From the NCBI GenBank assembly GCA_025454405.1, contig JALOON010000042.1, positions 1 to 25,333 on the forward strand: a stretch of 25,333 nt of DNA, written 5' to 3'. This DNA is from Oscillatoriaceae cyanobacterium Prado104 (GTDB taxonomy: Bacteria > Cyanobacteriota > Cyanobacteriia > Cyanobacteriales > Microcoleaceae). Of the stretch, positions 2,183 through 24,415 are shown in pieces. How positions within the stretch are numbered: the stretch's first letter is position 1; every line of letters starts with the position of its first letter. The position numbers and the translations under genes were made by a program. The notes beneath the pieces were generated by a model. The model did not search any database. It had not been told where the DNA came from and worked only from the letters and a program-made list of their open reading frames with translations.

Positions 2183-3421
2183 ATGGTTCACCAACCTCCA
2201 TCGGGTGCAAGAGATTTATTACCCCTTGACGTTGCCCAAAAAATTTCGATCGAACGCCGCTTGCAGGAAGTGTTTCACCGCTGGGGCTATCACCGAATTA
2301 TTACTCCGACTTTAGAAAGGCTGAAAACTTTGATGGCCGGAGGCGCGATCGACCGATCGACCCTAATTCAATTCCAAGATGCCGAAGACGGAGAATTAGG
2401 GTTGCGATCGGAATTAACAGCTTCGATCGCCCGCGCGGCTGCGATGCGAATGGCCGGGACTTCTTGGCAACCCCAGCGCCTCTACTACAACGCGAATGTC
2501 TTCCGCAAAGATCCCGATCCCGGCAGCGGCGGCCAGCAGGAATTCTATCAAGCTGGCGTGGAGTTGTTGGGCGCGGGAGGAACAGTCGCGGATGCAGAAA
2601 TATTGTTGTTGCTGTCGGAATGCTTGCAGATTTTGGGAATTGACGGCTGGCACTTGGTGGTGGGCGAAGCAGGGTTGACTGCCAGTTTGTTAGAAGCTTT
2701 TGAGCCTAATTTGCGGGAAAAAGTTCGAGAGGCAATTGCCAATCTCGATCGCATTGCTTTGGAAACTTTGCCGCTGTCACCCGCAATGCGAGACAGGGCG
2801 ATGCTGTTATTTGACTTGCGCGGCCGCCCGGAAGATGTGCTGCCAATTGTAGCGAATTTAGATTTAGATGCGACGCAGCAAACAGCATTAAACAATCTCA
2901 AATCCGCGATCGAATTGCTGCACAAATGCCAGTCAAAAATCCCCAATTTGCAATCTCAAATTCACCTCGATTTGAGTTTGATTCAAACTTTTGATTATTA
3001 CACGGGAATCGTGTTTGAAGTCGTCAGCAGCAGCCAGACGGGACAGCGAGTTTTGGGACAGGGGGGACGGTACGATCGACTGTTGGGACTGTTCGACCCG
3101 CAGGGGCAAAATGCCCCCGGCATCGGGTTTTGCCTGAATATTGAAGATTTGCACCAAATTTTGCTCGCCGAGGGTCAGTTGCTCAAGGAAACCCCTCCTA
3201 GCGAATGGTTGGTAGTGCCTGTGACTGCTGATGCGGTGGCGGCTGCTTTTGCCTACGCCCGCAAACTCCGAGATTCTACTCATTTAGTTCGGGTAGAAAT
3301 AGATTTGGAAATGCGCGAAAGTCCTGAAGAGGCAAGGGAATACGCGCGCGATCGGCGAATTGCTCAAATTGCTTGGGTAAATGTCGAAGGGTTCCCAACA
3401 ATTGAAAGGGTAAATAGTTAA
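2183..3421 (+). CDS. hisZ: ATP phosphoribosyltransferase regulatory subunit HisZ (HisRS paralog)
   Basis: Class-II aaRS/HisRS-like motifs are present: PSGARDLLP at the N-terminus, GGQQEFYQAGVELLG (motif-2-like but without the catalytic Arg, as in HisZ) and GQGGRYDRLLG (motif 3). At 412 aa there is no anticodon-binding domain signature. Confidence 0.7.
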   Translation: MVHQPPSGARDLLPLDVAQKISIERRLQEVFHRWGYHRIITPTLERLKTLMAGGAIDRSTLIQFQDAEDGELGLRSELTASIARAAAMRMAGTSWQPQRLYYNANVFRKDPDPGSGGQQEFYQAGVELLGAGGTVADAEILLLLSECLQILGIDGWHLVVGEAGLTASLLEAFEPNLREKVREAIANLDRIALETLPLSPAMRDRAMLLFDLRGRPEDVLPIVANLDLDATQQTALNNLKSAIELLHKCQSKIPNLQSQIHLDLSLIQTFDYYTGIVFEVVSSSQTGQRVLGQGGRYDRLLGLFDPQGQNAPGIGFCLNIEDLHQILLAEGQLLKETPPSEWLVVPVTADAVAAAFAYARKLRDSTHLVRVEIDLEMRESPEEAREYARDRRIAQIAWVNVEGFPTIERVNS

Positions 3422-3471
3422 TAGTTGACAGTTGACAGTTGACAGTTGACAGTTGACAGTTGATAGTTGAC
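3422..3471. repeat. (AGTTGAC)7 heptamer tandem repeat immediately after the hisZ stop
   Basis: tagttgacagttgacagttgacagttgacagttgacagttgatagttgac, read directly. Confidence 0.9.
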
Positions 3472-3774
3472 TATCCCCATCCCCCAATTGAAAATCGACA
3501 ATCGATTGACAGCCAACAGCTAGGTAATTAGAAATTGGGAATTTGTTAAAAATTAATAAGTGTGGTATGATGTAGGCGATCGCGAGCAGATTAAGTAGGA
3601 AGCTGTCAATAAACCTTAAGGCATAACAGAATGTCGGGTGATCGCGCTATCTGCGATAGTTTTGCTTCAGTCTGTTACGCTCGCAAATGACAAACTTAAT
3701 GTATTTTCCCACCCATCAAAAATCCTACATCCAAAACCCACAATTCGCAATCAAAAATCCAAAATCTAAAATCT

Positions 3775-3899
3775 AAAATCGAATATTCGCCAATCGAAAA
3801 TCCTCAATCGAAAATCCAAAATCCAAAATCTAAAATCGAATATTCGCCAATCGAAAATCCTCAATCGAAAATCCAAAATCCAAAATCTAAAATCGAATC
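3775..3899. repeat. 57-bp tandem duplication x2 (+11 bp partial third copy) built from AAAATCN heptamers, ending at the ferredoxin start codon
   Basis: Unit aaaatcgaatattcgccaatcgaaaatcctcaatcgaaaatccaaaatccaaaatct at 3775-3831 and 3832-3888. Then aaaatcgaatc, then ATG at 3900. Confidence 0.85.
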
Positions 3900-4127
3900 A
3901 TGGCTCATACTATTGTTACGAATACTTGTGAAGGGGTTGCTGATTGCGTCGGTGCTTGTCCGGTAGCTTGCATTCACCCCGGTCCCGGCAAAAATACCAA
4001 GGGTACTGATTGGTACTGGATTGATTTTGATACTTGTATAGACTGCGGAATTTGCTTGCAAGTATGTCCGGTTGAAGGCGCGATCGTCCCTGACGAAAGG
4101 CCCGAATTGCAGCAAACTCCTAAATAA
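3900..4127 (+). CDS. Small 2x[4Fe-4S]-type (7Fe-like) ferredoxin
   Basis: 75 aa with CEGVADCVGACPVAC (C-x5-C-x3-CP) and CIDCGICLQVCP (CxxCxxCxxxCP) cluster motifs. ATG sits immediately after a 57-bp tandem duplication. Confidence 0.8.
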   Translation: MAHTIVTNTCEGVADCVGACPVACIHPGPGKNTKGTDWYWIDFDTCIDCGICLQVCPVEGAIVPDERPELQQTPK

Positions 4128-4174: not shown

Positions 4175-4957
4175 TTATCCAATTCGATCCAATAACTGCC
4201 GCATCCATTCGCGATCGACCTCACTAAATGCAGGTGGCGGTGGAGACTGGGTATAGTCGATCGACAAATCGTACCCTGCTTCATCGTAGATAGCATTCAA
4301 AGCAGCTTGTAAATCGAGAACTGCATCGGCATCAGGTTCTCGTAACGGAACGGGAATTGTAGGAAGAATATCCTGTAACGTCAATGTCCAAAGGTCAATA
4401 ACTCCCGATCCAGCGCGGGTGAGAGAAATTAAGTAGGGTACTGAAGGAATGCGCAGATAATTCAACGGACGGGTTCCCCTGCGCAACAAATCAATTTCAA
4501 TTAAATGGACGTTAGCGTTATAAAGACGCTGGCGTTTTTTGCGGTAGTCCGTGATATTTGGTTCGCGCTTGTTTGCAGGGGAAAGAATTTCGATACAGGA
4601 TACCAGTACATTGTTCGCTGTATCCCTAATCTCAACAGTAGGGATGCGAACTGCAACGGGCTGCATGACAGGAAGCGTCAGTGATGCGGGAGTTGTGGCA
4701 ACATTTGACAAGCGGTTTGGTACTTCTCTAGTGTTGCGGTTTTGCGGTATTTGCAACACTTCTACATCGGGATAAAGGATACCAATTTCATTCTCAAAAG
4801 AACTGTCTTCCACTACATAAATTTCCAAACGGGCGACATATTTGGGGCGTAACTGCGGTGCGAGAAAAGCACGAATTTTGCTCGCCAAGGCGTTATGTAC
4901 GTCCGGCCACAATGCGGCTTCGAGGTAGGGGTCCATACCGGGGAAAGGGGAAGGCAT
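4175..4957 (-). CDS. DUF4058 family protein (Uma2-like, putative PD-(D/E)XK nuclease fold)
   Basis: N-terminus MPSPFPGMDPYLEAALWPDVH is the hallmark of cyanobacterial DUF4058 paralogs. The internal YPDVEV...IEILSPANK...YRKKRQRLY...HLIEIDLL resembles the Uma2/DUF820 PD-(D/E)XK core. Confidence 0.7.
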   Translation of the reverse strand: MPSPFPGMDPYLEAALWPDVHNALASKIRAFLAPQLRPKYVARLEIYVVEDSSFENEIGILYPDVEVLQIPQNRNTREVPNRLSNVATTPASLTLPVMQPVAVRIPTVEIRDTANNVLVSCIEILSPANKREPNITDYRKKRQRLYNANVHLIEIDLLRRGTRPLNYLRIPSVPYLISLTRAGSGVIDLWTLTLQDILPTIPVPLREPDADAVLDLQAALNAIYDEAGYDLSIDYTQSPPPPAFSEVDREWMRQLLDRIG

Positions 4958-5078
4958 TTTTTAGAAACTTACTAATTGCCGTTTTCAAGTAGATTTTGCT
5001 ATTAGCTTTTGATGCTTGCGTCTATTTTGGCACTGGTTTCACTCAAATGTCTAGAATACTTTAGGAATTACCCAAAAA

Positions 5079-5184
5079 GTTGGTAGTGGGGACTTCAGTC
5101 CTCAAAGGACTAAAGTCCTCACTACCAACCAGGTTGGTAGTGGGGACTTCAGTCCTCAAAAGACTAAAGTTTTCACTACGAACC
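5079..5184. repeat. Tandem pair of ~52-bp palindromic elements (gttggtagtgGggacttcagtcctcaaaggactaaagtcctcactaccaacc); MITE/REP-like
   Basis: Copy 1 at 5079-5130, copy 2 at 5131-5184. Each folds into a compound hairpin (ggtagtg..ggact / agtcctcactacc) with an inner agtcc/ggact stem. Related fragments occur at 13780-13806 and 25018-25057. Confidence 0.8.
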
Positions 5185-5231: not shown

Positions 5232-6272
5232 CTAAGTATCTGATATCAGAGGAAAGTTATCAGTTGCCAAAACTAGTCCGTTTTTGAGAGTTGCGATCGC
5301 CCCTGCTTGAGGAATACTTTTAATTAGTGCCAGCCCTTTTTCTGCACCGAGAACAAACGCAGCAGTAGACAATCCATCCGCTTCCATACCGCTAGATGCT
5401 AATACTGTAACGCTGGAAAATTCTTGTGGCGATTTACCCGTATGCGGATCGAAAATATGATGGTTAATGCAGTCTTCGCTGAATTTCGTTGCGTAATCAC
5501 CGGAAGTGGCAATAAATTGATTTTGTGGCTGTACAAATCCTAGATTTGCATTCATTTGGCGGGGGTTTTGAATGCCGATTTTCCAAGGAATTCCGGCTGC
5601 TTTTTGTCCCCAACTGCCGATTTCACCTGTATCTAGCAAAGCATTCTCAATGCCGTAGTTTTTAAGTACCGCAAGAACTCGATCGCTCGCAAAACCTTGT
5701 GCGATTCCGTTTAAAGTAATTGCCATTCCCGACTGAATAAATTGGATGCGTTTTGCGGATACTTCCAGATTGTTCCAGTTTACCAATTGCCTCGCTCGAT
5801 CGATTACTTCCCCTTCAGGCAACTTTCCTAATTTCTCAGCTTGCGCGCAAGCTTCCCACAAAGGCTGCACCGTGATATCAAAAGCACCGCCACTCAATTC
5901 TGAGAGATTTTGAGCGCCATGCAATACTTTCACTAAATCGGGATGGGGTAACTCCAGCCAGCCCTGACGATTCAGTTGGCTGACTTGACTTTCGGGGCGG
6001 TAAATGCTCATCAACTGTTCGATGCGATGCACTTCTCGCAGGGCTGCCGCGATCGCAGATTTAGCAAGATTAACATCCTCATGTACTGCGGTAATCGATA
6101 CATTCGTACCCATAGCGTAGGAAGTATCTCGTACCAATTTTAATCCGGTTTTTTCCCATGGTATAAAACTTGTTTGCTTTCCACCTAAGCGATTGATTAG
6201 CCCGCGCCCGCACAGCATCACGATCGCTCCTGCAGAGGCCATCAAAACTTTCCGACGCGCGATCGAATTCAT
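5232..6272 (-). CDS. apbE: FAD:protein FMN transferase ApbE, probably Tat-exported
   Basis: ApbE family motifs YAMGTNVSIT, GGAFDITV and SGDYATKF. N-terminus MNSIARRKVLMASAGAIV looks like a twin-arginine signal. It lies directly downstream of an FMN_bind-domain gene on the same strand. Confidence 0.8.
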   Translation of the reverse strand: MNSIARRKVLMASAGAIVMLCGRGLINRLGGKQTSFIPWEKTGLKLVRDTSYAMGTNVSITAVHEDVNLAKSAIAAALREVHRIEQLMSIYRPESQVSQLNRQGWLELPHPDLVKVLHGAQNLSELSGGAFDITVQPLWEACAQAEKLGKLPEGEVIDRARQLVNWNNLEVSAKRIQFIQSGMAITLNGIAQGFASDRVLAVLKNYGIENALLDTGEIGSWGQKAAGIPWKIGIQNPRQMNANLGFVQPQNQFIATSGDYATKFSEDCINHHIFDPHTGKSPQEFSSVTVLASSGMEADGLSTAAFVLGAEKGLALIKSIPQAGAIATLKNGLVLATDNFPLISDT

Positions 6273-6424
6273 ATTTTTTCCTCCTAATTTTAATTATTGG
6301 TAACTGGTGTCAATCGTTGGGTTGTAGCGGTTTTTTGAGAGTTACTGCTTTACTGGTTCCTAGGCTGTGCCTGGGAACCCAGATCTAGAGGCTCTGCCTC
6401 GCGTACTTTCAGGCAGATTAAACA

Positions 6425-7318
6425 TCATTTTTTCACAGCTTTTTGCAGTGCATCTTCAATTGCTAGTAACAATGATTTGCTGGTAGTAGTTGCTCCCGTC
6501 ACCCCGTCCAAATCCACTTTTTGCGCCCTAATAACTTTTCTCGTCACCCCTTCCGCCAGCAGTGGATAAAGAGCCGATCGATTGCTGATAATATCAATCC
6601 GAGTAATTTGATGTTGGGCAACAGTTACATCTACAGCATAAGTAAAGCCGCCTCCTGTTTCTTCCCCCCGATAGGTGCCATCGGCAACAGTTGCTAAATT
6701 TACTGGTGCAACGGGTTGTCGGCGGTAGGATTGCAAAACGACATTTTGCTGGTACAGATATAGGGCAACTGCGATCGCCACTACCGCGCCAATTACTAAT
6801 GTTGCCTTGCGATTAATTTGCAAGGGCTTTTTGCGCGTTCCCCACGGTTTAAACACAGAAATTACTACAACTGAGATTAAGATTGCCAACTCTAACCAAG
6901 TCCATCGAATCGTATTTGAAACAGCTTGCAGGTATGCCGGATCGCTTAGCGCATCAAGTCGCAAAGCATCGGAGATTGCAGCCATGCTGTTAATGGCTGG
7001 AGTTGAAATCGCCGTAATAAAAAAGCCAAAAAAGAAGATGATTGCCCACTTCAGCGCTATCCAATGAAATTTGAATGCACCCCAATTAGTGAAGAGTGAA
7101 AAGCACAATCCAGTATACAAAAAGCCAAACATGGCATTGGTAACAGCATAGTCGTGGATGTAGAAAATCGTGCGATCGATCGCGGCTAATTCGTCGCCAT
7201 TTTGAATGCCTGCTTTTGCGTGTACCAGCAACAGCATTGCCACCAATCCACCCACCCAAATTGTTGCTAACAAAATATGAATGCTCAGCAGGATGCGTCT
7301 AGTCGTCGGATTGAACAT
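6425..7318 (-). CDS. Polytopic membrane protein with C-terminal extracytoplasmic FMN-binding (FMN_bind) domain carrying a flavinylation motif
   Basis: Roughly 5 hydrophobic TM segments in residues 1-200. The C-terminal ~80 aa has the FMN_bind signature DLDGVTGATTTS (ApbE target motif D-x-x-[ST]-G-A-T), encoded at about 6479..6514. An apbE gene is adjacent. Confidence 0.7.
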   Translation of the reverse strand: MFNPTTRRILLSIHILLATIWVGGLVAMLLLVHAKAGIQNGDELAAIDRTIFYIHDYAVTNAMFGFLYTGLCFSLFTNWGAFKFHWIALKWAIIFFFGFFITAISTPAINSMAAISDALRLDALSDPAYLQAVSNTIRWTWLELAILISVVVISVFKPWGTRKKPLQINRKATLVIGAVVAIAVALYLYQQNVVLQSYRRQPVAPVNLATVADGTYRGEETGGGFTYAVDVTVAQHQITRIDIISNRSALYPLLAEGVTRKVIRAQKVDLDGVTGATTTSKSLLLAIEDALQKAVKK

Positions 7319-7349
7319 CTTGTTCGTACTCCTGACAAACTGATAGGAT

Positions 7350-7856
7350 ATGACAATATTGTGTCATTATGACAGGATACTGTCAAGTATGGTCGAGCAA
7401 CAAATTTATTCTCCGGCTGGCGAGGCGTTTACCGAATTGGTGTTGGAGATATTTCGGGTGAATGGGTGTCTGTTGGCTGAGGGCGATCGCATGACAGCCG
7501 ATTTAAACTTAACCAGCGCTCGCTGGCAGGTGATGGGCGCGATCGGGCGCGAAGCGATACCAGTGGCGCAAATTGCGCGCAAAATGGGGCTGAGGCGGCA
7601 AAGCGTGCAACGTCTGGTGGATATTCTGGCGGGTGAAGGGCTAGTTGAGTTTAAGCCCAATCCCGAGCACCAAAGGGCGAAGCTAGTAAAACTGACAGAA
7701 ATTGGGTGGCAAAAGCTCGATCGAATCAATCAAATAGAGGTAGGTTGGGCGAACAATATTAGCCGTGAAATGGATGTTGAAAAATTAAAGAATGCTGTTG
7801 AAATATTGCAGCAAATTCGCAAACATTTGACAGCTTGTGGGAGTTGTGAGTTGTGA
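7350..7856 (+). CDS. MarR family transcriptional regulator; true start probably ATG 7389
   Basis: Winged-helix MarR core ARWQVMGAI...VAQIARKMGLRRQSVQRLVDILAGEGLVEFKPNPEHQRAKLVKLTEIGWQKL. The first 13 codons of the track ORF overlap operator-like palindromes at 7351-7385, so the in-frame ATG at 7389 (MVEQQ...) is more plausible. Confidence 0.75.
   Translation: MTILCHYDRILSSMVEQQIYSPAGEAFTELVLEIFRVNGCLLAEGDRMTADLNLTSARWQVMGAIGREAIPVAQIARKMGLRRQSVQRLVDILAGEGLVEFKPNPEHQRAKLVKLTEIGWQKLDRINQIEVGWANNISREMDVEKLKNAVEILQQIRKHLTACGSCEL
7351..7385. promoter_or_regulatory. Array of alternating TGACA/TGTCA half-sites; candidate MarR operator in the divergent promoter region
   Basis: Read directly: TGACAatattgTGTCA (7351-7366), TGTCAttaTGACA (7362-7374) and TGACAGgataCTGTCA (7370-7385). 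They sit between the divergent FMN_bind/apbE operon start (7318) and the marR start. Confidence 0.5.
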
Positions 7857-7899
7857 GTTGAGGGTTGAGAGTTTTGAGTTGAGAGTTGAGAATAATTCT

Positions 7900-7964
7900 G
7901 AGTTTTGAGTTTTGAATTTTGAATTTTCTTTAACTCAAAACTCAAAACTCAACATTCAAAACTC
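7900..7964. terminator. Long imperfect hairpin from inverted heptamer arrays, (GAGTTTT)n loop (AAAACTC)n; bidirectional terminator candidate between convergent genes
   Basis: 5' arm gagttttgagttttgaattttgaatttt, loop cttta, 3' arm actcaaaactcaaaactcaacattcaaaactc. It lies between the marR stop (7856) and the stop of the minus-strand ATP-grasp gene (7973). U-rich on both strands. Confidence 0.5.
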
Positions 7965-7972
7965 CTTACCCA

Positions 7973-9490
7973 TTACGTTTCTCGATCGAGCACTTTGACA
8001 ATCTTGTTATAAATTTCTTCTGCTTCTTGCTGCGAATTGCCAATACTTGTCAGTCCCAATTTGCCAAACTCCGACAAACAGCCCATTAAATGAAAAATAG
8101 TCCCCGTTTCCGTACCCGTATCAAAATGCAGTTGATTGTCAGCAATAATATCCATTAAATCGTTCGGCAACAATCCCCGATAGCGCTCTTTTTTTAAATT
8201 GTCGGAAGCTACATAATATTTAGGACGCCCCTGCAGGCTGTAAAACAATCCTGTAGAGCGATCGTACCGACCGTTTGTTAGCAGTTTTAATGCCATAAAA
8301 GGATGAGTTGTACCTCCCTTCCGCAAGTTAATTTCTATTGCTTGAATATCCCACTTGCCATCAGCTTGCTGCACCGCCACAAAATCAACTCCAAACCTCT
8401 CTAAAGCGCCTTTTTCTGATAATTTTTGCCCTACTTTCCAACCCAATTCTTGCAGCGCTATCCGATAGGATTCATCCGCAGGAAACCGACAGCCCAGAAA
8501 AATTTGACCGTCGGGACCTCCTAAAATCTGGTCGTGAGTGGAAAGAATTTCGACTTCGCCACTGGGGAGAACTCGACCTTGAACGCTGGGCGATCGCTTG
8601 TTTTCTCCTTCGATAAATGCTTCGGCGATCGCCCCTAATTCCGGTATCCTGCTGCTGAAATTTTCCCATTTTTCTCCGGCTGCTTGAAAGCGCAAATTTG
8701 GTAAATAATCGGCGATTGCTTTTACCTTGTCTCGATCGGATGTACCCGCAATAGTTTTCAGTTCTAAAATAGCATTACCTTCGCCTGAGAAACCTTCATT
8801 TAGCTTAATTACAATCCTCTGCAAATCCGGCTGTCTTTGCCACAATTGAGCTGCCGCTAATGCTAAATCTCCCACATTCCAAACTAACTCCGAACCGTCG
8901 GGATAAGGCACGCCAGATTCTGCAAAAATTTGCCTGCTACCGCTTTTTGTTCCCCAATACAACAAATCTGGATCGCTGGCCCATAAAGGGATGCCCAATT
9001 TAACAGATAACTCGCGTTCTAAAGGCGTCGAGTTGTAACAAATCATATAAGATTTTGTCGGTCGCACTGCTTGGCGAATGCGTTCCATCAAGCGGGGGCG
9101 TTCTAAGATTTTTTGAGTGAGAGATTTCGCAGAAGCATCGTAAGTGGAAAATAATAATAGTCGATCGCGCGCGTGCGAAAATGGAATTCCCGGCAGCAGT
9201 TGCAAGTAATAATCAATTATCATGGGATGCAGCGGCTCGGAAGTCATGTAAATTAAGCGGGTGCGGGGATTTCGCAGGCGAATTAACGAGAATAAATGCC
9301 GTTCCTCGTAGTGGTGCGCGCCGGGGATTTTCTGCATTTCTTGCTGGTCTAAAGTGAGGGAGGGAATGACCATAATGTCGCAATCTCCGCTATCAAATTC
9401 TTCGATCGCCTGCCAGCGTTCTCGAAGTTCGCTTTGCAGGTTGCGAAATTGCAGAACGGTTTCTAAAGGTGAATTCGTTAACTCTAGCAT
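7973..9490 (-). CDS. ATP-grasp fold ligase with N-terminal pre-ATP-grasp-like domain (possibly PGM1-like peptide/carboxylate-amine ligase)
   Basis: ATP-grasp signatures are present: IVIKLNEGFSGEGN (Lys plus flexible Gly loop), AIAEAFIEG and FGVDFVAVQQADGKWDIQAIEINLRKGGTTHP (E-x-N Mg site). The family-level name is an inference from memory. Confidence 0.6.
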   Translation of the reverse strand: MLELTNSPLETVLQFRNLQSELRERWQAIEEFDSGDCDIMVIPSLTLDQQEMQKIPGAHHYEERHLFSLIRLRNPRTRLIYMTSEPLHPMIIDYYLQLLPGIPFSHARDRLLLFSTYDASAKSLTQKILERPRLMERIRQAVRPTKSYMICYNSTPLERELSVKLGIPLWASDPDLLYWGTKSGSRQIFAESGVPYPDGSELVWNVGDLALAAAQLWQRQPDLQRIVIKLNEGFSGEGNAILELKTIAGTSDRDKVKAIADYLPNLRFQAAGEKWENFSSRIPELGAIAEAFIEGENKRSPSVQGRVLPSGEVEILSTHDQILGGPDGQIFLGCRFPADESYRIALQELGWKVGQKLSEKGALERFGVDFVAVQQADGKWDIQAIEINLRKGGTTHPFMALKLLTNGRYDRSTGLFYSLQGRPKYYVASDNLKKERYRGLLPNDLMDIIADNQLHFDTGTETGTIFHLMGCLSEFGKLGLTSIGNSQQEAEEIYNKIVKVLDRET

Positions 9491-9505: not shown

Positions 9506-9577
9506 GGGAAAGAGAGGGAGAGTGGGGGAGGGGGAGAGGGGGAGAGGGGGAGAGAGGAAGAGGGGGAGAGGGGGAGA
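9506..9577. repeat. (GGGGAGA)n polypurine heptamer tandem repeat (~10 units) between the GT39 and ATP-grasp genes
   Basis: gggaaagagagggagagtgggggagggggagagggggagagggggagagaggaagagggggagagggggagaa, read directly. It is followed by (ATCCGTG)3 at 9634-9660 and (CAACTGT)5 at 9678-9710. Confidence 0.9.
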
Positions 9578-9677
9578 ATTTTTCTTTCTTCCTTCTGACG
9601 AAGAACGAATGACTCAAGAAATACGGATAATTCATCCGTGTATCCGTGTTATCCGTGTCGTGCCTTCCTTCTTCCTT

Positions 9678-9710
9678 CAACTGTCAACTGTCAACTGTCA
9701 ACTGTCAACT
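9678..9710. repeat. (GTCAACT)5 heptamer repeat, reverse complement of the AGTTGAC family, directly after the GT39 stop
   Basis: caactgtcaactgtcaactgtcaactgtcaact, read directly. Confidence 0.9.
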
Positions 9711-9713
9711 ATT

Positions 9714-11330
9714 TTAAGCATCCCACCGCACTCGAAAAAGTCTGGCATATTCCAATATAGGCTCTAACCGGCGTTGGTATTCCTGCAAGGCCGATCGCAA
9801 CTTTTCGGAAGGCCGGAACGCTAGAGGATTCGTATATTTTCTTACCGTATCGATATCTGGCGACTGACTCAGCAGCAGCAATCGCACATCTTTATCCAGC
9901 AGATAACTTAAAGATAGCAAATCTCCCATGTTTGTAAAATCGTTGCCCCGATCGCTAATTACAATTGTATCTTTAATCGATCGATTAGCTATCGCTTCTT
10001 TGTTAATATATCCGGCAACTTGTGCGTTAAAATAGCTCAAGTCTTTGCTCCACCAAGTATTAGAAAAAGCACTGGCAGTACATGATGCTATGCTGGCTGC
10101 AAACACCGCTGATACAATGATTTTTCCGAACGACTGCCGGCTTTTGATGGTGCTGGCAAGCCAGCCTGCAACTGCTAGCTGCACTCCCGGAAAACAAGAA
10201 ACCAAATAGCGACTGACGGCCGATCTCTTGCCTCCCATAATTATATCCGGTAAAGCTAATATTAGAAAAGGTACAAAAATCGATGTTACAACAAACAGCC
10301 AAGTTGCAGTGTTAGTGTGGCGGCACATTTGGTAAAGTGCGACGGCAATTAATAGCAAAAACGGCACTCTCAGCAGGTAAGTCCAGATATTATCAAATCC
10401 AAAATCGAGGTCAAAAAATATGGCTGTAAAACTGAGAGTCCACAATTTGCTAAGGAAAGGCAAACCGGGGGCGACTCGCGTCCAATCTGTCGTAGCTTCG
10501 GCGCGTTGGAGGTTGGTTGCCAGCACGTAAATCCAAGGCACGTACAAAATTAAACCCGCTGTTACTGCTAAGAAAAACTGGGAATTGATGATGTGTCCTT
10601 GTACTTCCTTTCTTTTGACAAACAACCAATATAAAATTACAAAAGCCCCCTGTCCGATTAATGTTAAGCTGAAGAATGGATGAGTGTAGAAACCAAGGGC
10701 GATCGCCAGCGCATAAAACACCCAATTATACCATTTTTGCAACCGCACTGCTCTCAACAACAGCCAACTGCTGCCGATAACTGTTACTGTTAGCAAACTG
10801 TACTGTCTTGCTGTCTGAGCGAACAAGATATCGAAGGGAGATAAAGCTAACAGGGCTGTTGCTAATAAAGAAGCTGAACTTGAGGCAAAAAGTTCTTTCG
10901 CTAAAGCGTACATTAAAGGTAAAGACAGCAAGCTCAGTAGCGCTGGCAAAGTGCGGGATGCTGTTAGAGAACTGCCAAATTGCTGCATCCAAAATCGAGC
11001 CATGAGAAAGTATAAAGGTGGATGCTGCGGGTCTTCCAACGCGAGGGAATTAATTGTATCTGCTGCGGTACTTCCCGGTTTTATCTGTTGGTATTTCTGC
11101 AATTGGGGAGCAGGAAAGATACGGTTTTGGAAAAGTTCGTCATCGATTTCTTGTCGGGTGAAGCCAGCCGCCCGGAGCGAGGTGTAAGCTTCATCATGCC
11201 AGTAAAGTTTGCGATCGAGCTGGAAAAAGCGAAATCCGATGCCTAATAAAATAACAGCAATTAATAGACTTATAAACCATCGTTGGTTTGGGCGGTCTAT
11301 CGAATTATTTCGCTCAGTTGTAGGTGCCAT
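9714..11330 (-). CDS. Glycosyltransferase family 39 (PMT/ArnT-like, GT-C) polytopic membrane glycosyltransferase
   Basis: About 12 predicted TM segments. The first-loop motif YWHDEAYTSLRAAG (DE catalytic pair) is typical of GT39/ArnT-like enzymes. 538 aa. Confidence 0.7.
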   Translation of the reverse strand: MAPTTERNNSIDRPNQRWFISLLIAVILLGIGFRFFQLDRKLYWHDEAYTSLRAAGFTRQEIDDELFQNRIFPAPQLQKYQQIKPGSTAADTINSLALEDPQHPPLYFLMARFWMQQFGSSLTASRTLPALLSLLSLPLMYALAKELFASSSASLLATALLALSPFDILFAQTARQYSLLTVTVIGSSWLLLRAVRLQKWYNWVFYALAIALGFYTHPFFSLTLIGQGAFVILYWLFVKRKEVQGHIINSQFFLAVTAGLILYVPWIYVLATNLQRAEATTDWTRVAPGLPFLSKLWTLSFTAIFFDLDFGFDNIWTYLLRVPFLLLIAVALYQMCRHTNTATWLFVVTSIFVPFLILALPDIIMGGKRSAVSRYLVSCFPGVQLAVAGWLASTIKSRQSFGKIIVSAVFAASIASCTASAFSNTWWSKDLSYFNAQVAGYINKEAIANRSIKDTIVISDRGNDFTNMGDLLSLSYLLDKDVRLLLLSQSPDIDTVRKYTNPLAFRPSEKLRSALQEYQRRLEPILEYARLFRVRWDA

Positions 11331-11738: not shown

Positions 11739-11776
11739 CCCTTCTTCCTTCTTCCTTCTTCCTTCTTCCTTCTCCC
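11739..11776. repeat. (TTCTTCC)5 polypyrimidine heptamer tandem repeat
   Basis: cccttcttccttcttccttcttccttcttccttctccc, read directly, about 120 bp upstream of the recA ATG. Confidence 0.8.
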
Positions 11777-17973: not shown

Positions 17974-17978
17974 GAAAA

Positions 17979-18055
17979 GTTTTGAGTTTTGAGTTTTGAG
18001 TTTTGAATTAAAAAATGTCTTTAACTCAAAACTCAAAATTTAAAACTCAAAACTC
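17979..18055. terminator. Second inverted heptamer-array hairpin, (GTTTTGA)n loop (TCAAAAC)n; bidirectional terminator candidate
   Basis: gttttgagttttgagttttgagttttgaat / loop taaaaaatgtctttaa / ctcaaaactcaaaatttaaaactcaaaactc. It lies between the convergent stops at 17973 (+) and 18070 (-). Confidence 0.5.
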
Positions 18056-24197: not shown

Positions 24198-24415
24198 ACT
24201 CGGTTTTCTTTGGTATGAGTGCGCGCTTAACTGCAATCTCAAATCTATAATCGCCCGCTCCTGTGTTGCGTCGCCGTCCCAAAACAATCGAAAATAGCAA
24301 ATAGCAAATCGCAAATCGCCCGCTCGTCAGTTGCGTCGCCGAGCGAAATTAATCGCCAATCGCCAATCGCCAATTGCCCGATCGTCCCAGAACGAATTTG
24401 TTAAGCTTTACAGTT

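Follow-up and report, generated by a model that had tools for sequence, protein, structure and literature searches.

One of the major ways in which bacteria move electrons outside their cytoplasm is covalent flavinylation by ApbE, and the catalogue of membrane partners of flavinylated proteins is incomplete; a locus of Oscillatoriaceae cyanobacterium Prado104 raises the question of whether a further kind of partner exists, and of how its synthesis is controlled. The locus lies on contig JALOON010000042.1, whose whole analysed stretch of 25,333 nucleotides is called the window below, and it comprises three genes: one for a membrane flavoprotein of 297 amino acids (aa) (6425..7318, minus strand) with a C-terminal FMN_bind domain (FMN, flavin mononucleotide), one for an ApbE transferase (5232..6272, minus strand), and a divergently transcribed one for a repressor of the MarR family (7389..7856, plus strand). 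The reading preferred here, with a rough probability of 0.6, is that of an operon, repressed by MarR, whose product is a self-contained membrane redox protein matured by ApbE; the anatomy and regulation of the module are solid, and the chemistry set out below is a proposal.

The flavoprotein and its flavinylation site

The flavoprotein gene was characterised by its open reading frame (ORF), Pfam matches, an alignment of 43 homologues (30–70% identity), an AlphaFold2 model built from that alignment and a topology prediction; a database entry identical to the protein is named 'FMN-binding protein [Oscillatoriaceae cyanobacterium Prado104]'. The Pfam search with the 297-aa protein placed FMN_bind (PF04205, 27.4 bits against a cut-off of 22) at residues 228–292, in a domain, predicted to be extracytoplasmic, that occupies residues 200–297 (6428..6721, minus strand). 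This domain contains the flavinylation motif DGVTGATTTS, i.e., D271-G-V-T-G-A-T277-T-T-S280 (6479–6508, minus strand), in which T274-G-A-T277 fits the ApbE target motif [S/T]GA[S/T] as defined in PMC8238504; the predicted FMN-phosphoester site is Thr277 (codon 6488–6490). G275, A276 and T278 are invariant in the alignment, and position 277 is Thr in at least 90% of the homologues and Ser in the remainder.

The AlphaFold2 model (predicted local distance difference test score, pLDDT, 92.5; predicted template modelling score, pTM, 0.88) contains helices at residues 4–34, 41–76, 85–125, 127–156 and 170–199, followed by a three-strand/helix α/β domain, the FMN_bind fold of which resembles the flavinylated domains 8p2a and 8p2b. 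The first four helices form a membrane bundle (residues 1–165; 6824..7318, minus strand), the fifth, at about residues 170–199, is an additional transmembrane helix (TM5), and the bundle and the FMN_bind domain are packed together. Averaged over the 43 sequences, the N-terminus, loop 2 and loop 4 carry net charges of +2.2, +2.1 and +5.8, respectively, and loops 1 and 3 only +0.2 and −1.7; this positive-inside pattern, together with the five helices preceding the domain, predicts that the N-terminus is inside and the FMN_bind domain outside, at the outer face of either the plasma or the thylakoid membrane, the location that an exported ApbE needs if it is to flavinylate the domain.

The ApbE transferase and its linkage to the flavoprotein gene

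The protein encoded by 5232..6272 is an ApbE, a flavin adenine dinucleotide (FAD):protein FMN transferase (PF02424, 249.8 bits); the best match among solved structures, PDB 5mgy (121.9 bits, E 3.4e-34), is itself an FAD:protein FMN transferase, and the TSGDY and ADGLSTA segments are aligned. Its twin-arginine (RR) export signal reads SIARRKVL, followed by a hydrophobic stretch, and the RR motif is present in every module-linked ApbE orthologue, e.g., as LSRRKFLM or ITRRKVLL.

For a census of the linkage, look-ups in genomes and metagenomes were combined with those of exact proteins; of the 47 non-redundant full-length loci obtained, 44 have judgeable downstream DNA. In 12 of these 44 loci apbE lies immediately 3' of the flavoprotein gene, a proportion that rules out universal adjacency, and a search with the ApbE hidden Markov model (HMM) found no further apbE within the flanks of the 44 loci. 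The 12 linked loci form two clades: the first includes all six loci whose flavoproteins share 50% identity or more with that of the window (the window itself, L052, L033, L034, L050 and L035), and the second consists of high-GC loci of the Burkholderiales type. L052 and L033 are rich in the highly iterated palindrome HIP1 and are, therefore, cyanobacterial. The identities of ApbE and flavoprotein drop in parallel (59/70, 44/57, 49/52 and 45/50%, respectively). In the relatives the two genes overlap or are separated by at most 15 bp (gaps of −4 to +15 bp), which supports an operon and co-transcription; the window, with a spacer of 152 nt (6273..6424, minus strand), is the exception. The spacer contains a hairpin at 6355–6379 (11-bp stem, no T-run, fold z-score −2.1), unique in the window and without a family match in Rfam, and a strong AGGAGG Shine–Dalgarno sequence 8 nt before the ATG of apbE. 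A riboswitch or other known RNA in the spacer or in the control region upstream of the flavoprotein gene was also considered and dismissed, as Rfam returned only sub-threshold matches to hairpin-type microRNAs, none of them within those regions.

Two tandem 54-nt units, located 3' of apbE at 5069..5176, each fold into a hairpin with 24-nt arms and gave only sub-threshold microRNA-like matches in Rfam; they are probably the 3' end of the operon or a terminator.

A preliminary description of this DNA, made from the letters alone, had proposed a protein with about five transmembrane segments and an outward-facing C-terminal FMN_bind domain with an intact motif, and next to it a co-transcribed gene for an ApbE with an RR signal. 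These proposals stand, and the FMN_bind match, the Thr/Ser conservation and the adjacency of orthologues to apbE, on which that description had made its case depend, were all found. Flavinylation outside the cytosol is, according to PMC8238504, 'strikingly underrepresented in Cyanobacteria', a rarity that would explain why the transferase accompanies its single substrate.

No neighbour beyond apbE is broadly conserved in the 44 loci. In the Burkholderiales clade apbE is followed by a MacB-type ABC/HlyD set, which also occurs in the Calditrichia-type loci L007 and L060, and L008 has an ABC ATPase alone; as a candidate partner this set was rejected, being absent from the window and most loci, and it is treated as lineage-specific.

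A membrane bundle outside the published partner classes

The published membrane partners of flavinylation are Nqr/Rnf, Nqr/Rnf-like, NapH-like, MsrQ-like, PepSY-like, DsbD and DUF4405 proteins (Meheust 2021, PMC8238504; Huang 2024, PMC11334425), and neither DUF2269 nor PF10027 was found in the text and supplements of these two papers that were searched. Pfam searches of the window protein matched none of the published classes at E ≤ 0.1 (MsrQ-like PF01794, PepSY-like PF03929/PF16357, DUF4405, NapH-like, DsbD, NqrB/RnfD-like), in agreement with the earlier remark that the membrane domain resembles no canonical partner of FMN_bind; the bundle has four helices and one His, against six helices and four His in the cytochrome classes. 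What the search did yield was an alignment, scoring just under the cut-off, with DUF2269, a family of which we know no function and which is rarely mentioned in the literature searched: PF10027 aligned with residues 9–158 over model positions 2–150 of 150 (27.5 bits, cut-off 28, E 3.7e-6), and several homologues of the flavoprotein carry a precomputed PF10027 assignment. A distant HMM–HMM similarity is reported to link DUF2269 to DUF989, the membrane domain of PuuD (PMC4562309).

Stand-alone four-helix relatives of 165–180 aa, which stop directly past the KPWG motif, are widespread (Pelotomaculum, Chlorobium, Bacteroidota, Synechocystis plasmids). These membrane-only proteins show sub-threshold matches to both DUF2269 and UPF0093/HemJ (PF03653, 17–27 bits, cut-off 34.2); the window flavoprotein gave no match to PF03653 in the Pfam/NCBIfam search. 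Judged by these similarities, the membrane domain is placed between DUF2269 and HemJ/UPF0093, and outside the published classes of flavinylation partners. The profile search intended for the bundle alone retained FMN_bind columns, and multi-FMN proteins contaminate its list, so the size of the family is approximate.

Eleven bundle residues are invariant in the FMN-fused subfamily (43 sequences), namely H14 (codon 7277–7279), T77, G80, W86, K90, W91, D117, S154, K157, P158 and W159. H14, W86, K157 and P158 are also invariant when the canonical stand-alone DUF2269 proteins are compared, whereas the invariance of D117 is confined to proteins that possess FMN_bind; D117 lies on the outer face and the other ten residues at the cytoplasmic face. 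Because invariant residues are shared with stand-alone proteins, the bundle is, as far as the alignments tell, under selection in its own right. This pattern bears on the possibility that the bundle is a mere membrane anchor or scaffold, and the flavinylated domain a periplasmic electron shuttle with unlinked partners. Such a role seems unlikely: a single helix would suffice for anchoring, yet eleven bundle residues do not vary, several of them common to stand-alone DUF2269 proteins; the outer-face Asp is fixed only together with FMN_bind; and the two domains, to judge by the high pTM, share a fixed interface.

Some relatives of the bundle (L043-L049; P0055, P0053) possess TM5 and an outward His/Met-rich tail of the GGGMHHH type, and they adjoin genes for BNR_2, TetR, multicopper oxidase, Metal_resist, DUF305 and OEP proteins; another relative carries an outward FGE-sulfatase domain. 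Together with an LTXXQ/Metal_resist gene after one relative, these associations would fit a flavin-dependent Cu/Fe reductase with a CopD-like bundle, in which Cu(II) or Fe(III) would be reduced by the outward FMN and handed on via His14 by the bundle. The hhalign comparison aligned H14 with His154 of E. coli YebZ within a common H-x6-W-x-GG motif, the YebZ substitution H154A abolishes Cu uptake (PMC11923076), and flavinylation systems tied to iron uptake are already known (PMC8238504). The probability of that hhalign alignment is only 6.6%, however, and the bundle has one invariant His rather than the two of CopD (PF05425), so that it was not assigned to this family; moreover, YebZ His154 is reported to lie close to the periplasm (PMC11923076), unlike H14 with its position at the cytoplasmic face; neither the window nor the majority of the 44 loci contains metal genes; and the CxxC tail of the window MarR is an accident of a heptamer repeat. 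A metal reductase is, on balance, improbable.

The MarR regulator and its double operator

The 155-aa product of 7389..7856 was identified as a MarR-family repressor by Pfam (MarR_2, 48.4 bits; MarR, 31.6 bits), and it also matches solved MarR structures. The preliminary description had recognised the ORF and its divergent orientation correctly, but had placed the start at 7350; the public 155-aa gene call and the homologue alignments indicate the ATG at 7389. With this start, the palindromes lie not within the gene but in an intergenic control region of 70 bp (7319..7388), containing two putative operators and promoter-like sites. Operator 1, TGACAATATTGTGTCA, occupies 7351–7366 and operator 2, TGACAGGATACTGTCA, 7370–7385, with the centres 19 bp apart; they are the only two TGACA-N6-TGTCA sites of the window, against 0.02 expected by chance, and their junction, TGTCA-TTA-TGACA, makes up the last of the three overlapping palindromes seen earlier. 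The promoter-like site of the flavoprotein gene on the minus strand is TTGACA (7386–7381)-17-TG-CACAAT (7363–7358), and that of marR on the plus strand is CTGACA (7332–7337)-17-AATATT; the double 16-bp operator overlaps both.

The subfamily comprises 1527 homologues at E ≤ 1e-10. Operator contexts were inspected in four independent cases with MarR identities of 58–100%, i.e., in the window and in the unrelated genomes of L136, L137 and L133 (58–62%), and in all four a double operator with a 3-bp linker precedes the MarR start codon. The sequences are TGACAGCATCCTGTCA-TTA-TGACAGGATGCTGTCA in L136, TGACAGTATACTGTCA-TCT-TGACAGGAGGCTGTCA in L137 and aGACAGCATACTGTCt-TAT-TGACAGCATACTGTCA in L133, and in the first 914 kb of locus DNA examined the exact motif occurs next to these MarR genes and nowhere else. 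This conservation supports the MarR control proposed earlier. In L136 and L137 MarR is divergent from a tandem pair of canonical DUF2269 genes, and in L133 from a SnoaL-like gene. Plasmid homologues with 40–46% identity retain TGACA-N6-TGTCA boxes, single or double, and have as neighbours genes for an ABM monooxygenase, an ABM–cytochrome b561 fusion, DUF2269, DJ-1/PfpI, SnoaL and unannotated small proteins; unrelated MarR genes flank membrane-only relatives of the bundle on the Synechocystis plasmids pSYSG and pSyn7338-1. From these gene contexts, MarR control of a DUF2269-type protein is a recurrent arrangement. Beside the FMN-fused orthologues no MarR gene was found; TetR, an extracytoplasmic function (ECF) sigma factor or no regulator takes its place. 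The expectation that cyanobacteria conserve the order of MarR, FMN_bind and ApbE genes has accordingly failed in the single other cyanobacterial FMN-fused locus with readable upstream DNA, where TetR and fasciclin genes lie upstream and MarR is missing, a caveat to the regulatory picture.

Two of these arrangements may be described separately. On a Ralstonia solanacearum megaplasmid (L143, 1900-2394) a gene of the MarR subfamily is divergent from that of a 164-aa protein consisting of an ABM monooxygenase and a C-terminal cytochrome b561 fragment, and a second pair of MarR and a small gene adjoins the first. On pSYSG of Synechocystis PCC 6803 (L138, 21810-22985) the 171-aa membrane-only relative WP_011153796.1 is divergent from the unrelated MarR WP_011153797.1.

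The C-terminal CGSC of the window MarR was considered as a redox or metal sensor and rejected, since the homologues lack it and its codons belong to the opening units of a GAGTTGA heptamer array. Heptamer arrays resembling short tandemly repeated repetitive (STRR) sequences, GAGTTGA ×7, AATTTTG ×5 and AACTCAA ×5, occupy 7841–7964, where marR and the ATP-grasp gene converge; complementary to one another, the arrays form a long imperfect hairpin, and the first units encode the non-conserved tail CGSCEL.

Genomic context

The HIP1 octamer GCGATCGC occurs 19 times in the window, against 0.59 expected, a number that confirms the host as a cyanobacterium, and four of the sites are inside the module, which for this reason looks native rather than recently acquired; a recent horizontal transfer is unsupported, since both the GC content and the HIP1 density of the module are similar to those of its flanks.

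Other genes of the window include an ORF for a 75-aa 2×[4Fe-4S] ferredoxin (3900–4127, plus strand), convergent with a DUF4058 gene (4175–4957, minus strand, 254 bits), and a gene for an ATP-grasp ligase of the PGM1/BesA type (7973–9490, minus strand; NCBIfam BesA 154 bits, far under the cut-off), which a PMT_2 glycosyltransferase gene (9714–11330, minus strand) adjoins; the latter pair possibly forms a small cassette for modification. Many other heptamer arrays (ACAGTTG, AGTTGAC, ATCCAAA and others) lie between genes, at 708–736, 3416–3471, 3715–3898 (180 bp), 9677–9710, 11740–11773, 17978–18055 and 24286–24378, and an array of the 8-mer AGAGGGGG (×8.4) at 9511–9577.

Proposed mechanism and its weighing

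In a MarR-repressed operon of this kind, MarR dimers would sit on both operators in the absence of ligand and silence both promoters, and a small-molecule or redox signal would free MarR from the DNA. The neighbourhoods of the MarR homologues suggest quinone- or electrophile-type stress as the trigger; it is the detoxification and redox character of the partner genes of the subfamily that points to it, by association only. ApbE would then flavinylate Thr277, and the covalent FMN would trade electrons with the bundle, which would act as an active element, not a passive anchor, and bind a partner from the membrane phase, the likeliest being a quinone/quinol or else a b-type haem held at the site of the invariant His14. 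Reducing equivalents could, in this way, be moved between the membrane pool and an extracytoplasmic substrate; we infer the electron donor, the acceptor and the cofactor. By analogy, the four-helix families related to the bundle (HemJ, PuuD, CopD), which act in redox or metal handling, may be counted in favour of the proposal. The stress- or ligand-induced membrane redox device suggested in the preliminary description is supported; its second suggestion, extracellular electron transfer, found no specific support.

Several observations weigh against the proposed membrane redox protein. The DUF2269 score of the flavoprotein is 0.5 bit under the Pfam cut-off, and the links of the bundle to HemJ and CopD are sub-threshold. 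H14 is the only invariant His and lies at the cytoplasmic face, as do most invariant residues, opposite the FMN domain, so that no complete transmembrane electron wire can be drawn. In 32 of the 44 loci there is neither a nearby apbE nor a conserved redox partner, and the 152-bp gap with its hairpin could permit separate regulation of apbE in the window. Finally, the homologue alignment revealed no conserved Cys in the MarR subfamily, which makes a ligand-type signal more likely than thiol sensing.

The grouping of invariant residues at the cytoplasmic face could also be read as the mark of a redox sensor, in which the redox state of the outside FMN would be relayed via the bundle to that face and signalled to a partner. 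Four loci of the Calditrichia type (L007, L060, L065 and L075) have a gene for a 7TMR-DISM + SpoIIE (PP2C) membrane phosphatase directly upstream of the flavoprotein gene, at a distance of 8–218 bp, and in one relative an ECF sigma/anti-sigma pair is divergent, both of which would suit a sensor. But the flavoprotein has no cytoplasmic output domain, a signalling partner is missing from the window and most loci, and stand-alone bundles occur without any sensor module; a sensor is thus very unlikely, the least probable of the alternatives considered.

The module offers a functional lead for the widespread DUF2269, through the fusion to a redox domain and the link to a MarR subfamily with a predictable operator. 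A broader and more tentative proposal, somewhat doubtful at present, would make the four-helix bundles of the DUF2269 type a hitherto overlooked class of membrane redox proteins that bind a cofactor or a quinone, form a widespread stress module with the dedicated MarR subfamily and its double TGACA-N6-TGTCA operator, and have their function revealed by the FMN_bind/ApbE fusion described here. On that proposal, flavinylation-based extracytosolic electron transfer would gain a further class of membrane partner, in a phylum nearly without such chemistry. The pair of membrane-only relative and MarR on pSYSG resides in a model strain, Synechocystis PCC 6803, which makes the hypothesis open to genetics.

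Comparison with known systems

The module shares with the ApbE-flavinylated FMN_bind systems an extracytoplasmic FMN_bind domain with a [S/T]GA[S/T] site and a co-located, signal-bearing apbE, and with the MsrQ–FMN_bind fusions the union of membrane partner and FMN_bind in one polypeptide. Unlike the cytochrome classes of flavinylation partners, which possess six transmembrane helices along with two bis-His haem sites, it employs a DUF2269-like four-helix bundle with a single invariant His. The N-terminal domain aligns with stand-alone DUF2269 proteins over the whole 150-position model, H14, W86 and K157-P158 being common to both, and in two genomes the stand-alone genes are divergent from the same MarR subfamily with the same operator; the window protein differs from them in the added TM5 and FMN_bind, in its score just below the family cut-off, and in that its close relatives also score on UPF0093/HemJ.

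The protoporphyrinogen oxidase HemJ (UPF0093) resembles the bundle in being a small helical membrane domain, although the sub-threshold UPF0093 matches are confined to the bundle relatives; HemJ is reportedly a b-type haem protein. In the urate oxidase PuuD (PMC4562309) a helical membrane domain (DUF989), distantly related to DUF2269, is fused to an outward electron-transfer domain, and FMN_bind of the window protein would stand in for the PuuD cytochrome c; PuuD has about eight helices, however, and shows no significant sequence match to the window protein. CopD/YebZ with CopC (PMC11923076) provides a four-helix core with an H-x6-W-x-GG helix, an outward-facing partner domain and cytochrome-fused variants; the differences are the His on the opposite membrane face, the lack of a CopC gene in the window and of a second His, and the low hhalign probability given above.

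The window MarR is similar to MarR-family repressors with divergent target operons, such as E. coli MarR, in its winged-helix MarR_2 domain and in palindromic operators that overlap the −35/−10 elements of divergent promoters, so autoregulation is likely. The MhqR-type quinone regulators of B. subtilis belong to the same group. In contrast to known MarR repressors, the window MarR belongs to a distinct subfamily, with a double TGACA-N6-TGTCA operator at 19-bp spacing and no conserved Cys. What is new in the locus, compared with all these systems, is a membrane partner of an ApbE-flavinylated extracytosolic protein that has so far been undescribed, and a MarR subfamily whose operator can be predicted.

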